Source: Nanobdellota archaeon
GTDB lineage: Archaea > Nanobdellota > Nanobdellia > Pacearchaeales > GW2011-AR1
DNA: 63,491 nt
Assembly (NCBI GenBank): GCA_018817405.1
Contig: JAHITZ010000032.1
Location: 1-63,491, forward strand
Direction of reading: 5' to 3'
In this document: one piece after another, positions 6,726 through 62,605 of the stretch
Layout of the letters: every line of letters begins with the position of its first letter
Position numbering within the stretch: the stretch's first letter is position 1
The notes under the pieces: model-generated
Seen by the model: only the letters and a program-made list of their open reading frames with translations
Told to the model about the DNA's origin: nothing
The model's database searches: none
Program-made: the position numbers and the translations under genes

Positions 6726-6782
6726 AGGCGCCCCACCGAAATGCCAAAATGTTATAATTCTCCTGTGGAACCTTCTGCTCTA

Positions 6783-6950
6783 TGCTCCTACCGGGATTCG
6801 AACCCGGGCCTTCGCCGTTCTCCATGCCTTTCAATCTGAAAGACACTTAAATAAAAGTGCCTGCCTCAAGCGAGACTGAAGGTATTAGATCACCTCAGCA
6901 ACCTCCGGCAATCGAGAGGGCGATATCCTTAACCGCTAGACAATAGGAGC
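6783..6950 (-). tRNA. tRNA-Glu (anticodon CUC inferred) with an intron of about 95 nt (about 6818-6912)
   Basis: Acceptor GCTCCTA/TAGGAGC; D arm GTCT..GGAT; anticodon stem TCGCC/GGCGA pairs only if about 95 nt after position 37 are removed; T arm CCGGG-TTCGAAT-CCCGG. Confidence 0.75.
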
Positions 6951-22141: not shown

Positions 22142-22239
22142 TGGTCCCGACGGGATTTGAACCCGCGACACCTAGGTTTCTTTTACTTTTAGTTCAATAC
22201 TAAAAGCCTAGTGCTCTAACCAGGCTGAGCTACGGAACC
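22142..22239 (-). tRNA. tRNA-Lys (UUU) with an intron of about 22 nt
   Basis: GGTTCCG/CGGGACC acceptor; GCTC-AGCCTGGTTA-GAGC D arm; anticodon stem CTAGG/CCTAG restored after removing about 22 nt; T loop TTCAAAT. Confidence 0.8.
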
Positions 22240-23694: not shown

Positions 23695-23890
23695 CACTAA
23701 TCAAAATAAACAACGCTAACCCGATAATAATAAAAATCCCCATCATCAACGGAGAGGCATTTGCCAATAAATTCAACCCAGCAGACATCTCGCCTTCTTC
23801 AACAATCATTGAATTTGTCCACGATGAAAACATAAATAAAGAAACCAAGGCTAGAATTAACACAGCCAATAAAATTATGTTTTTTTTCAT
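23684..23890 (-). CDS. Small two-TM membrane protein
   Basis: 68 aa, hydrophobic. Confidence 0.4.
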   Translation of the reverse strand: MKKNIILLAVLILALVSLFMFSSWTNSMIVEEGEMSAGLNLLANASPLMMGIFIIIGLALFILISVKP

Positions 23891-23953
23891 GAGAAAAAAA
23901 GGAAGAAGGATTATTTATGTGTTTTGGACAGTAACAATACCGAATAAAATGTT

Positions 23954-24112
23954 TAACGGTATCGGGCTATACGAAGTCGGCGTAAGCCGATTTGGGTGGA
24001 GAAACCTGCAAGGTTTCGGAACCGTTAAATTCCTGTTATGCTCTCCCGACGACTGGAAGGAGGAGAGCGCAGCGGGGCAAAATCCAAAGGATTTTGAGTT
24101 CAGAATTCGGGC
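23954..24112 (+). ncRNA. GC-rich, structured-RNA-like segment (left copy), identity unknown
   Basis: Clearly GC-richer than its surroundings; stems AACGGT/ACCGTT, TCGGC-GTAA-GCCGA (GNRA loop), GAAACC/GGTTTC, CTCTCC/GGAGAG; 43 nt identical to 24513-24555. Confidence 0.35.
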
Positions 24113-24195
24113 GTCATCAATATTAACTTCAGAGTAGTAAAAGAACCGAAAGATTTATGAATATGCTCTTTATTCTAATCCTAAGGAGATAAAAA

Positions 24196-24462
24196 ATGTC
24201 AGAAAGAAGAGGATTAGGATTTTTTGAAACTGTCTGTGCAGTAGTAGTTGGAGCTTCATTAGCGACAATTCCAGACTACGTCAGACAAGGAAACATAGAG
24301 AATAAAGTTGACCAATTACTTCAAAGACCCGCAATTGAATTAAGAACAGAAAATGTTATTGGTGGAAATGCACCTGAGAAATTCTATGAAATTGCTGGGA
24401 AAAGAGTATATTTAGAAATAGATGGTCAACCAGTAGATAACTATGTTCAAAATAGAGAATAA
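24196..24462 (+). CDS. Small protein with a type IV pilin-like N-terminus
   Basis: AGGAG 8 nt upstream of the ATG; MSERRG-LGFFETVCAVVVGASLA gives basic residues, Gly, Glu at +5 and then a hydrophobic helix. Confidence 0.4.
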   Translation: MSERRGLGFFETVCAVVVGASLATIPDYVRQGNIENKVDQLLQRPAIELRTENVIGGNAPEKFYEIAGKRVYLEIDGQPVDNYVQNRE

Positions 24463-24491
24463 ATCTTTCGGTTTCTATAATTTTACATTTA

Positions 24492-24645
24492 GCCCGAATT
24501 CTGAATTAGACATAACGGTATCGGGCTATACGAAGTCGGCGTAAGCCGATTTGGGCGAACGGGGTGAGCCGTATAGCCCGTGTTATATGACCGAGCCGAA
24601 GGCGGGGCAAGGAGCGAAGCGACGCAGAGTTCCGAACCCCACCAT
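24492..24645 (+). ncRNA. GC-rich, structured-RNA-like segment (right copy), identity unknown
   Basis: 11-bp stem CGGGCTATACG/CGTATAGCCCG enclosing a TCGGC-GTAA-GCCGA hairpin; shares CGGGGCAA and GAGCG.AGCG strings with the left segment. Confidence 0.35.
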
Positions 24646-24647
24646 AT

Positions 24648-25244
24648 TTATTTTGTCTGAGTGCCACCTATAACTTCATTAGTGTTTTTATCCACATAAA
24701 CTACCAGATGACTACCTTCAGCAGGACCAGGATAATAAAATTTGACAATCCAACATGAATGTTTTGATGGCGATTTTATTGGCTCCTTGTCCCAGTTCTC
24801 CCAATAATGATTTGCTTCACATTCGTCTTCAACAACTTCCACTTTTTTCACCATAGAGAAAAAGTCAACATTGGGAAACGCATTATGAACATATTTTTGT
24901 AAATGCTCTTTGGCAATACTTTCTACTAAAGGAGTAGATGATTCAATACAAGCATTATTCACACAACTGCACCCTTCTGGAATCAAACACTTCCAACGTG
25001 GCTCTCGAAAACAATAACTTTTCAGATTATTGTACTTAGATACTCCTTCTAAATTCACACACTGTCCGCATCTTACTACCTTACAATCGCTATCTGAAGT
25101 GCAATATTTATAGTTCTTTAATTCTTCATTTGCCAATGTATGAAATTTATTTTCGCAGTATATGAATTGCCAGTACGCAATTACGAAAACAATCAGTATC
25201 AAAATTCCAATTCCAATTAAGATTTTTTTATTGTTTTTCATCAT
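24648..25244 (-). CDS. Membrane-anchored Cys-rich extracellular protein
   Basis: 198 aa; N-terminal TM, Cys-rich middle region, PepSY-like C-terminal pattern VVYVDKNTNEVIGG. Confidence 0.55.
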   Translation of the reverse strand: MMKNNKKILIGIGILILIVFVIAYWQFIYCENKFHTLANEELKNYKYCTSDSDCKVVRCGQCVNLEGVSKYNNLKSYCFREPRWKCLIPEGCSCVNNACIESSTPLVESIAKEHLQKYVHNAFPNVDFFSMVKKVEVVEDECEANHYWENWDKEPIKSPSKHSCWIVKFYYPGPAEGSHLVVYVDKNTNEVIGGTQTK

Positions 25245-25501
25245 AATTTATTATTGTTTTATTTTATTAAAATGTTTTGTTTTTTCAAAGGGGTTCGGAA
25301 TTTCATATAACAAGGTATTATGTCTACTTTCCCCAAACTAAAAAACCATTCCACTTATCGCACCCACTCCTCCTCTCGCTCACCACCAAAATTAAAGTTA
25401 CCCATCGCTCAGCAACACCAGCCACCTCTCACTTTGATATTTATCTGCCCCCTACAACCATTCCCCACACCCCCTACCTTCTCGCTCACCACCACCCCAC
25501 A

Positions 25502-61762: not shown

Positions 61763-62605
61763 CTATTCACTTTTCCCACTATCTTCCTTAAACAAACCAT
61801 CAAATGGATTCGCAACTTTCTTCAACTGTTCAGAAGAGATATGAGTATAAACTTGAGTTGTGTTTAATGATGCGTGGCCCAACATCACCTGAATAAGACG
61901 AATGTCAACACCCTGCTCAAGCAAATGCGTGGCAAAACTATGCCTTAATGTGTGGGGCGTTGTTTTCTTCGTAATGCCTGCGCGCTCTTTAGTTCCTTTA
62001 ATAATTTTTTGTATATTCCTCGTCGTCAGAGGCTTTGTCTTGGAAAAAACATACTCATTTTCCTTTCCTCTTGTATCAAAGTAATCTTTCAGCTCTTCAG
62101 AAAGATTTTCAGACATAACAAATAATCTGTCTTTGTTTCCTTTTCCCCTTCTCACCCATCCTGTTTTTTCGTCTAAATTCAAATCAGAAACCTTCAGATT
62201 AACAAGCTCAGAAACCCTCAAACCAGTAGAATACAATAACGAAACAATCAACCGCGACTTTATGGTGTCAGTAGACTCAATCAAGTTCCTGACTTCGCTC
62301 TTCGTTAAAACTTCTGGAAGTTTTTTTTCTTTCTTCGGCAGTGGAATGCCCTCAAAATCTTTTTTCAAAACTTCTTTAAAGAAAAACTTCAACGAAGCAC
62401 CGGCAAGCATGATTGTGTTCTTGGATTTTGTGTCAAACATCTCAGAAAGATAAGCCTTAACATCTTCCTTGTCTAATTCTTTTTCTTTTTTGTTTGTTTT
62501 TTTTAAAAATTTATTGACGAAAAAAGTATAGTTACGAACGGTCAACGGAGAAAACCCCCGAATTTTCAACTCTGCTTTTAATTTTTCTAATAACTCCATT
62601 AGCAC
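61763..62605 (-). CDS. xerA: Tyrosine recombinase, XerA/XerC/XerD-like
   Basis: 280 aa; GLRVSE, HTLRHSFATHLL, LGHASLNTTQVYTH. Confidence 0.85.
   Translation of the reverse strand: MLMELLEKLKAELKIRGFSPLTVRNYTFFVNKFLKKTNKKEKELDKEDVKAYLSEMFDTKSKNTIMLAGASLKFFFKEVLKKDFEGIPLPKKEKKLPEVLTKSEVRNLIESTDTIKSRLIVSLLYSTGLRVSELVNLKVSDLNLDEKTGWVRRGKGNKDRLFVMSENLSEELKDYFDTRGKENEYVFSKTKPLTTRNIQKIIKGTKERAGITKKTTPHTLRHSFATHLLEQGVDIRLIQVMLGHASLNTTQVYTHISSEQLKKVANPFDGLFKEDSGKSE

Follow-up and report, generated by a model that had tools for sequence, protein, structure and literature searches.

What are two GC-rich, strongly folded segments doing in the AT-rich genome of a nanobdellotan archaeon? They lie close together in a contig of 63,491 nucleotides (JAHITZ010000032.1 of assembly GCA_018817405.1), the whole of which is called the window here, and an earlier note made from the sequence alone had proposed that they are copies of an unannotated structured RNA. 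The analysis described below points elsewhere. The segments are very probably attC-type recombination sites belonging to a short integron-like cassette array at approximately 23951–25311. No integrase gene lies beside this array, so it would resemble the clusters of attC sites lacking integron integrases (CALINs).

The window is AT-rich archaeal DNA with a mean GC of 0.374, and its gene content includes an intron-containing tRNA, RNA polymerase subunits, and a class II ribonucleotide reductase (RNR). Set against the 37% of the window, the two segments reach 52–62% GC, in keeping with the contrast first reported, and their maxima of 0.56 (23953–24099) and 0.62 (24485–24683) are among the window's few GC peaks. 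The 43-nt core that they were said to share, TAACGGTATCGGGCTATACGAAGTCGGCGTAAGCCGATTTGGG, does occur exactly at 23954–23996 and at 24513–24555, and a 24-nt part of it is found at only these two places in the window with up to three mismatches allowed, where none is expected. Equally exact is the 11-bp stem CGGGCTATACG/CGTATAGCCCG of the right copy (24522–32/24570–80), and the hairpin TCGGC-GTAA-GCCGA in the core and the strings GCGGGGCAA and GAGCG.AGCG can be seen as described. Two details had to be amended: the left closing stem given as AACGGT/ACCGTT is present but is 9 bp long (TTTAACGGT/ACCGTTAAA), and the GNRA loop of the core hairpin, which is real in the window, is not conserved in relatives. 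Features unreported earlier include the spacing of the repeats, which at 559 bp is the length of one gene cassette; perfect inverted repeats around an 88-aa open reading frame (ORF), ORF88, at 24099–24112/24492–24505 and 24144–24158/24459–24473; and a third, stripped-down partner site at 25290–25311. The whole 721-nt stretch folds with a z of −10.

The right segment (24510–24646) is a full member of a site family with at least 43 other loci in diverse Archaea and Bacteria, among them Archaeoglobales, Methanosarcinales, Thermoplasmatales, Altiarchaeota, Nano- and Woesearchaeota, Dehalococcoidia, WOR-3, Acidobacteria, Clostridia, and others. A pattern, TGTTAWATG-N15-45-GGAGCGAAGCGACG, was taken from the part common to both right-hand sites (that of the window and that of the strain contig L001 discussed below) and searched in GTDB contigs representing one genome per species. 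It returned 26 loci, about 22 of them with full architecture, and a stricter pattern added 17 further loci from metagenome contigs. Seventeen members were aligned (alignment A1) and used to build a covariance model, R1. The consensus starts with nnnTAAC, G plus 4 nt, a stem of 9–11 bp, a hairpin with the base AAGT/ATTT, and GG. It ends with a hairpin GC-GAR-(mini-hairpin)-YGA-GC, the return strand, T, GTTAnnnn, and a GC-rich tail, which contains GGAGCGAAGCGACG in the pattern-selected members. Covariation analysis, which the earlier note had proposed as a check, backs this three-way junction heavily. Across 41 relatives, 93.0% of the cells are paired versus 73.5% in shuffles and 31–51% in slid controls, and changes altering both sides occur in 20 of the 23 pairs (160 compensatory cells). 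Helix 1, the stem beside the core, is 92.6% paired and has no bulge. The left box reads nnnTAAC in 33 of the 41 members and the right box GTTAnnn in 34; in the window, the boxes are GTTTAAC...GTTATGC at the left segment (site A) and ACATAAC...GTTATAT at the right (site B).

These sites come in arrays. The R1 model found two to four sites per locus, on one strand and at a spacing of 0.2–4 kb, in Bacteria as well as Archaea, and the flanking ORFs lie mostly on the opposite strand (56 of 57 on the right, or tail, side and 44 of 52 on the left). Successive sites are matched in their boxes: the GTTAnnnn that closes one site is the reverse complement of the nnnnTAAC that opens its successor, as in GTTAAGTGA/TCACTTAAC, GTTCAACGA/TCGTTGAAC, and GTTAGGCGATACGGCGGTA/TACCGCCGTTTCGCCTAAC, and the complementarity often stretches to 18–20 nt or goes on in a separate arm. 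An exact complement of at least 9 nt joins 16 of 29 adjacent pairs versus 9% of cross-locus controls. The arms covary between loci (e.g., TTGCGACGGCCGC/GCGGCCGTCGCAA and GTGGCGAGCGAAGT/ACTTCGCCCGCCA), and boxes reading GTTATATGA have a partner, (arm′)-TCATATAAC, 0.4–6 kb downstream. This box complementarity is the integron cassette rule, expected for circular cassettes joined at G^TT, where ^ marks the point of joining. The rule is symmetric, so the attC orientation was assigned from the direction of the ORFs and the invariant A after AAC.

In the window, the array consists of sites A and B and two cassettes, cassette 88 (23957–24515, 559 bp) and cassette 198 (24516–25310, 795 bp), with the following features:

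23951–24041, + strand: site A, a degenerate, chimeric attC-like site (R1 match 23951–24115, 31.8 bits, E 7e-6)
23951–57, + strand: left box of site A, GTTTAAC
23954–96, + strand: 43-nt stretch of site A identical to site B, with the hairpin TCGGC-GTAA-GCCGA
24002–17, + strand: hairpin GAAACC-TGCAA-GGTTTC of site A
24023–33, + strand: orphan 3′ stem strand of site A, CGTTAAATTCC
24035–41, + strand: right box of site A, GTTATGC
24042–24112, + strand: tail of cassette 88, with the hairpins GCTCTCC...GGAGAGC and AAAATCC-AAA-GGATTTT, then the arm TTCAGAATTCGGGC (24099–24112)
24196–24462, + strand: ORF88, the 88-aa cargo of cassette 88, pilin-like at its N-terminus, with a promoter of its own at 24144–24158
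24492–24516, + strand: right end of cassette 88, arm′ GCCCGAATTCTGAA (24492–24505) and box ACATAAC (24510–16)
24510–24590, + strand: site B, an intact attC-like site (R1 match 24510–24646, 127.9 bits, E 2e-29)
24510–32, + strand: box ACATAAC, spacer GGTAT, and stem CGGGCTATACG (24522–32) of site B
24533–52, + strand: hairpin AAGT-CGGC-GTAA-GCCG-ATTT of site B
24554–70, + strand: hairpin GGC-GAACGGGGTGA-GCC of site B
24570–90, + strand: return stem CGTATAGCCCG (24570–80), T, and box GTTATATGA (24582–90) of site B
24591–24640, + strand: conserved tail of cassette 198, CCGAGCCGAAGGCGGGGCAAGGAGCGAAGCGACGCAGA, and arm GTTCCGAACCCC (24629–40)
24648–25244, − strand: the 198-aa cargo of cassette 198, Cys-rich and starting with a membrane or signal segment
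25290–25311, + strand: right end of cassette 198, arm′ GGGGTTCGGAAT and box TCATATAAC (25303–11)

The architecture of site B is reproduced by the DNA fold. Its left box, ACATAAC (24510–16), doubles as the end of cassette 88, where CATAAC (24511–16) is complementary to GTTATG (24035–40) and the arm TTCAGAATTCGGGC pairs perfectly with 24492–24505. In cassette 198, TCATATAAC is the exact reverse complement of GTTATATGA, and the arm GTTCCGAACCCC pairs with 25290–25301. The 198-aa ORF is bracketed on the left by TGTTATATGA...GTTCCGAACCCC (24581–24640) and on the right by GGGGTTCGGAAT-T-TCATATAACA (25290–25312), with TGTTATATGA (24581–90) pairing with TCATATAACA (25303–12). Crossovers would fall between A24515 and C24516 at the right end of cassette 88 and between A25310 and C25311 at that of cassette 198. 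No three-way junction follows 25311, so the array ends there. The 198-aa ORF has no significant Pfam family and is oriented as usual, opposite to the strand used here to describe the sites. The tail of cassette 88 is homologous to the tails of loci L161 and L169; that of cassette 198 contains GCGAAGC, and 24581–24646 is identical at 63 of 66 positions to a Dehalococcoidia locus.

Site A is built differently. The proper partner of its orphan strand CGTTAAATTCC is GGAATTTAACG, which is seen as the stem GGAATTTAACG/CGTTAAATTCC in locus L177. Site A is thus a chimera, in which the first 43 nt of a B-type site meet the 3′ half of another type at the conserved TTTGG. Because its 5′ half and its 3′ stem strand come from different site types, the family's main stem cannot form, and the DNA fold closes TTTAACGGT/ACCGTTAAA instead; site A is probably crippled as a site. 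Its origin by exchange with a B-type site would account for the identical 43-nt core.

Ten homologs of ORF88 were found at 40–70% identity, all of them without a Pfam family; nine come from metagenome assemblies in Logan, ENA, or JGI. With MSERRG/LGFFETVCAVVVGASLA at its N-terminus, ORF88 is similar to proteins that carry a class III (type IV pilin-like) signal peptide. The B recognition element (BRE)/TATA region of the ORF88 promoter, AAAGATTTAT, is conserved together with GTAGTAA upstream of homologs in other contigs, and it recurs as a perfect 15-bp inverted copy right after the ORF88 stop codon (24144–24158/24459–24473). An element linked to ORF88 was considered as well and ruled out: homologs on other small archaeal contigs, at six loci (L146–L151), have no GC-rich flanks, and the flanks are therefore not part of the ORF88 gene family.

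The sites also mark the exact end points of a cassette swap between near-identical strains. L001, a contig of another assembly, matches the window at 99.8% identity in the RNR gene region and at 98% in 23990–24536 (cassette 88), and it carries a 677-bp HIT-family cassette in place of cassette 198. The differing stretch, made up of another right-hand site and the HIT-family gene, lies between ...TTAGACATAAC and AAGGTATTATGTCTAC; the change points fall directly after ...ACATAAC on the left, where near-identity ends at 24517, and after ...TAAC on the right, identity resuming at TAAC. Each version has self-complementary ends and arms of its own, TGTTATATGA/TCATATAACA and GTTCCGAACCCC/GGGGTTCGGAA in the window and TGTTAAATGC/GCATTTAACA and TTGAAAAAGTGCGCC/GGCGCACTTTTTCAA in L001. 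The right-hand site of L001 keeps the window's architecture, and its main stem differs by compensatory changes (GGGCTTATGCG/CGCATAAGCCC). When exact proteins were looked up around RNR and PIMT, solely copies identical to the window came back. A comparison of L001 2755–2800 with window 23951–23999 shows that L001 joins an SMC gene to cassette 88 via a different left half of site A, which suggests exchange between sites at different genomic places or is possibly a contig mis-join.

Which enzyme might act on such sites? A tyrosine recombinase gene lies within a few kb in 7 of the 43 fetched loci; all seven were found with XerA-like queries, and three of them were typed by profile or structure search. 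The typed array-end recombinases score above the cutoff of NF040815 (XerA_Arch), whereas TIGR02249 (integron integrase) matches below its cutoff and in two pieces. In the structure search, XerA structures (PDB 5hxy and 4a8e) were matched in one stretch and IntI4 (2a3v) in two. The distance from the catalytic Arg to the His-x-x-Arg box is 87 residues, which, compared with the spacing in XerD and IntI1, leaves no room for the IntI-specific insertion. No integrase with the IntI-specific domain was found in the window, and the typed recombinases of other loci are without the insertion. The array-end recombinases being XerA-like in this way, the system is integron-like and not canonical. The window has a XerA-type tyrosine recombinase of its own at 61763–62605 on the − strand (NF040815, 270 bits). 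It is approximately 40% identical to the array-end recombinases elsewhere and could possibly be the trans-acting enzyme for the array.

A conserved palindromic terminal site stands directly beside five of the seven recombinase genes. At L165, L176, L184, L162, and L190, the array ends in ..CATATAA^C; two palindromic repeats, ATATCCGAAC-N-GTTCG.ATAT, come next, and behind them lies the recombinase gene, which is co-oriented with the cassettes in L165, L176, L184, and L162 (a pseudogene) and divergent in L190. The platform after ..CATATAA^C, with two to three dyad-symmetric repeats of the form ATATCCGAAC-N(1-5)-GTTCG.ATAT whose arms covary between loci, was located as follows:

L165, 6195–6275, site on + strand: terminal platform
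L184, 1990–2065, site on + strand: terminal platform
L176, 1945–2030, site on + strand: terminal platform
L167, 885–985, site on + strand: terminal platform
L179, 6633–6710, site on + strand: terminal platform

Could the segments be small structured non-coding RNA genes instead, of approximately 140–160 nt on the + strand, with their own promoters and oligo-T ends? Much of what led to this idea stands, as they are strongly structured and conserved with compensatory changes; in addition, TATA-like sequences (TTATTTAT at 23912 and TATAATTT at 24476) and T-runs flank both window copies, two invariant G·T(U) pairs occur on the + strand, and the 721-nt stretch has the z of −10 given above. It is the step from structure to RNA genes that is not supported, given the arrays, the box rule, the cassette swap, the recombinase genes at some array ends, and the lack of a G·U excess. 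None of the RNA signatures compared earlier had matched convincingly, and an Rfam scan with 4227 models likewise gave no family for the segments at the gathering score, nor any at E≤10 in 23850–24750; the only matches were chance-level ones in AT-rich flanks. A transcribed structure should tolerate G·U far above A·C, so the 20 GT/TG versus 19 AC/CA cells among the variable pairs, counted in an alignment built with an RNA model that favours G·U, show no RNA-type wobble bias. Members lie antisense, wedged between co-oriented genes in both domains and often without room for a promoter; site A of L001 sits directly behind the SMC stop codon, site A of the window is without the family's main stem, and the supposed promoter of copy B is the loop that the two inverted repeats of cassette 88 enclose. 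There would also be no RNA rationale for box complementarity across the cargo or for the cassette swap, and the RNA-gene explanation is accordingly very improbable. A selfish GC-rich palindromic repeat (a miniature inverted-repeat transposable element [MITE], a repetitive extragenic palindrome [REP], or a "GC-cluster") that spreads by itself and provokes homologous recombination without defining cassettes would fit GC-rich islands in an AT-rich genome, the breaking of short-read contigs at copies (L156 and L003), and the breakpoint of the site A chimera in the conserved TTTGG core, as repeat–repeat homologous exchange would give. It is hardly credible, however, with one cluster only in 63 kb, with arrays tied to a recombinase platform, and with same-orientation arrays whose gene-specific box and arm complementarity a free-standing repeat would not create.

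A closer competitor holds that these are ordinary attC sites served by a canonical IntI encoded elsewhere, with the XerA-like genes at array ends being coincidental or cargo. Canonical attC integrons and CALINs are documented in Nanoarchaeota and other archaea, as is cross-domain attC identity (PMC9668308), and the AAC/GTT cores, the cassette architecture, the co-oriented ORFs, and the cassette sizes of 0.4–2 kb all fit. This is nevertheless unlikely: the three typed recombinases are without the IntI-specific insertion and exceed the XerA profile cutoff, five of the seven recombinase genes stand at the conserved palindromic terminal site, and the site geometry is unlike that of canonical attC. 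An IntI gene inside the fetched loci would also have been matched by the tblastn queries, a point that covers those loci only.

Some further candidates were discarded along the way. Signal recognition particle (SRP) RNA, RNase P RNA, 5S RNA, H/ACA RNA, and hammerhead motifs misfit by inspection and were negative in Rfam. A split or permuted RNA gene would have to contend with perfect, bulge-free stems and would leave the 43-nt repeat unexplained. For an archaeal bulge-helix-bulge intron carrying ORF88, the stems 24099–24112/24492–24505 and 24144–58/24459–73 are perfect, and no such motif, with two 3-nt bulges around a 4-bp helix, could be drawn at their base by inspection. An IS200/IS605-type element was rejected, since Pfam scans of the locus ORFs and ten other window ORFs found no TnpA or TnpB gene, the cargo genes are mutually unrelated, and the array logic differs. 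Patterns of 14–16 nt gave chance matches only against viral contigs.

Several features of the DNA itself bear on how attC-type sites of this kind would work. DNA folds of both strands give the same architecture at similar energy, and the strand antisense to the cargo genes (the bottom strand in integron terms) has G·T invariably at two positions. The tail units comprise GCGAAGC and several C-GAA-G, and d(GCGAAGC) is an unusually stable DNA mini-hairpin. The arrays, the box rule, the even wobble counts, the cassette swap, and the recombinase genes at some array ends are together signatures of DNA recombination sites that would fold as single strands.

How far does the likeness to integrons go? 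Integrons and integrase-less attC clusters have been documented in archaea, including Nanoarchaeota from groundwater (PMC9668308). As in integrons, the arrays here consist of mostly single-gene, co-oriented cassettes split by imperfect-palindrome sites with conserved ..AAC and GTT.. cores, and every cassette opens with bases that complement the inverse core of the site it carries. The strains differ by whole cassettes exchanged at cores, the distribution crosses domains, and a terminal site lies by a tyrosine recombinase gene that is divergent (L190) or co-oriented as in "reverse" integrons. There are differences as well: the "variable" part is here a conserved three-way junction with the fixed bases AAGT, ATTTGG, and a GAR..YGA hairpin; the complementarity reaches beyond 7 nt to boxes of 9–20 nt plus separate arms that bracket the GC-rich tail; this tail is nearly invariant across phyla; and the recombinases are XerA-like without the IntI-specific domain. 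Likeness to structured non-coding RNAs of the Rfam kind is confined to GC-richness, the three-way junction, and covarying stems; none of the 4227 models matched, and the genomic behaviour is that of a recombination site.

The Xer/dif system offers a second comparison. There is presumably a resemblance to Xer-dependent modules such as the pdif modules of Acinetobacter plasmids and IMEX elements, in that modules are bounded by recombinase sites. The enzymes score as XerA (NF040815; PDB 5hxy and 4a8e), and the terminal sites are dyad-symmetric, ATATCCG-AAC-N-GTT-CGGATAT, with arms around a short centre holding AAC..GTT. A dif site is a single 28-bp duplex in which 11-nt arms enclose a 6-nt spacer (PMC8371274). 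In the cassette sites, by contrast, a folded junction of approximately 70 nt separates AAC from GTT, there are arrays with self-complementary cassette ends, and the dif-like palindromes occur only at array ends, at other loci. The literature yielded no description of these motifs or of a Xer-linked cassette array, within a partial coverage that does not prove novelty, and the supplement of Ghaly et al. 2022 (PMC9668308) lists neither this assembly nor these motifs.

A number of observations weigh against the interpretation as attC-type sites. No recombinase gene adjoins the window's array, the nearest XerA-type gene being 37 kb away, and ORF88 has the minority orientation among cargo. The helix beside the core is a perfect 9–11 bp, with no bulged L box and no extrahelical bases, and the spacer is asymmetric, at 5 nt versus 1–2 nt, where canonical attC is symmetric and unpaired. 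Nine published archaeal attCs have AAC-AA plus a bulged ..C.C..GAC L″ (PMC9668308) and show no sequence resemblance to the window's family; their alignment supports only a 6-bp R box, and a covariance model from them was abandoned. In their strict forms, RYYYAAC and GTTRRRY are met in only 15 and 7 of the 41 boxes, the latter figure being biased by the search pattern, and a part of the conservation, that of TGTTAWATG and of the 14-mer GGAGCGAAGCGACG, is a product of the way the loci were searched. At site A, moreover, the window and L001 break inside the site, at TTTGG and not at AAC, so that some rearrangements at this locus are not site-specific; breakpoints of this kind would be homologous or aberrant exchanges between sites.

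If the segments are attC-type sites, how might they be used? A site on the + strand of the window comprises nnnnTAAC, a 5-nt spacer, an 11-bp stem closing two hairpins, T, and GTTAnnnn. A cassette would begin at the C of one AAC and end with the AA of the following one, in the order of its own junction, the GTTAnnnn box, the GC-rich hairpin tail with its arm, the cargo gene, the complementary arm′, and the likewise complementary nnnnTAA box. By analogy with integrons, the strand antisense to most cargo genes, with its two invariant G·T pairs, would fold as a single strand, and a tyrosine recombinase acting in trans would cut the conserved core as AA^C, or as G^TT on the opposite strand, so that cassettes could leave as circles, be inserted, or be exchanged. 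Once a cassette is circular, box would pair with box and arm with arm, giving one long stem capped by the junction. For cassette 198, the predicted circular junction is GGAATTTCATATAA joined to CGGTATCGGGC (A25310 to C24516). For cassette 88, it is CTGAATTAGACATAA joined to CGGTATCGGGC, which because of the 43-nt repeat would be the same as the resident junction 24515/24516, and the predicted empty site is TTAGACATAA joined to CAAGGTATTATG.

Tentatively, the family may be served by Xer-like enzymes, in a system distinct from IntI integrons. The window could then conceivably be an outpost of an undescribed cross-domain integron analogue, with a XerA-like platform, dif-like terminal palindromes, three-way-junction cassettes, self-complementary ends, and a GC-rich tail. 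In such an analogue, the terminal site might consist of two dif-like palindromes centred on AAC-N-GTT. The cassette site would be a dif-type core with its centre expanded by a folding module, and the cassettes of recombinase-less arrays such as that of the window might be moved by the host XerA.

Other parts of the window deserve brief mention. A tRNA-like gene at 6770–6945 (− strand), reported by neither ARAGORN nor Rfam, has an acceptor stem of 7 bp (GCTCCTA/TAGGAGC), and its D and T arms can be recognised (GGGTTCGAATCCC); its approximately 95 nt of extra internal sequence are probably one or two large introns. A tRNA at 22142–22239 (− strand) with a 24-nt intron scores 58 bits in Rfam and was missed by ARAGORN. 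Right after the RNR stop codon, at 25300–25500 (minus strand), lies a G-rich, almost C-free tract of approximately 200 nt with a GC skew of −0.75, in which GGTGGTGAGCGAGA is repeated and GC stems are impossible; a similar G-rich stretch ends the SMC gene in L001 (2680–2760).

For annotation, the locus illustrates that a GC-rich folded island in an AT-rich DPANN genome need not be an RNA gene. In this case, the islands flag a hot spot of gene exchange, one that differs between strains 99.8% identical next door. The site type spans Nanoarchaeota to Dehalococcoidia and Acidobacteria, with a part that is 95% identical across two domains, and this recurrence and identity make it a candidate for carrying genes between the domains. 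Should the Xer-like association hold, cassette capture would extend beyond the IntI integrases, and integron-type sites would have a possible path of origin from dif-type sites.

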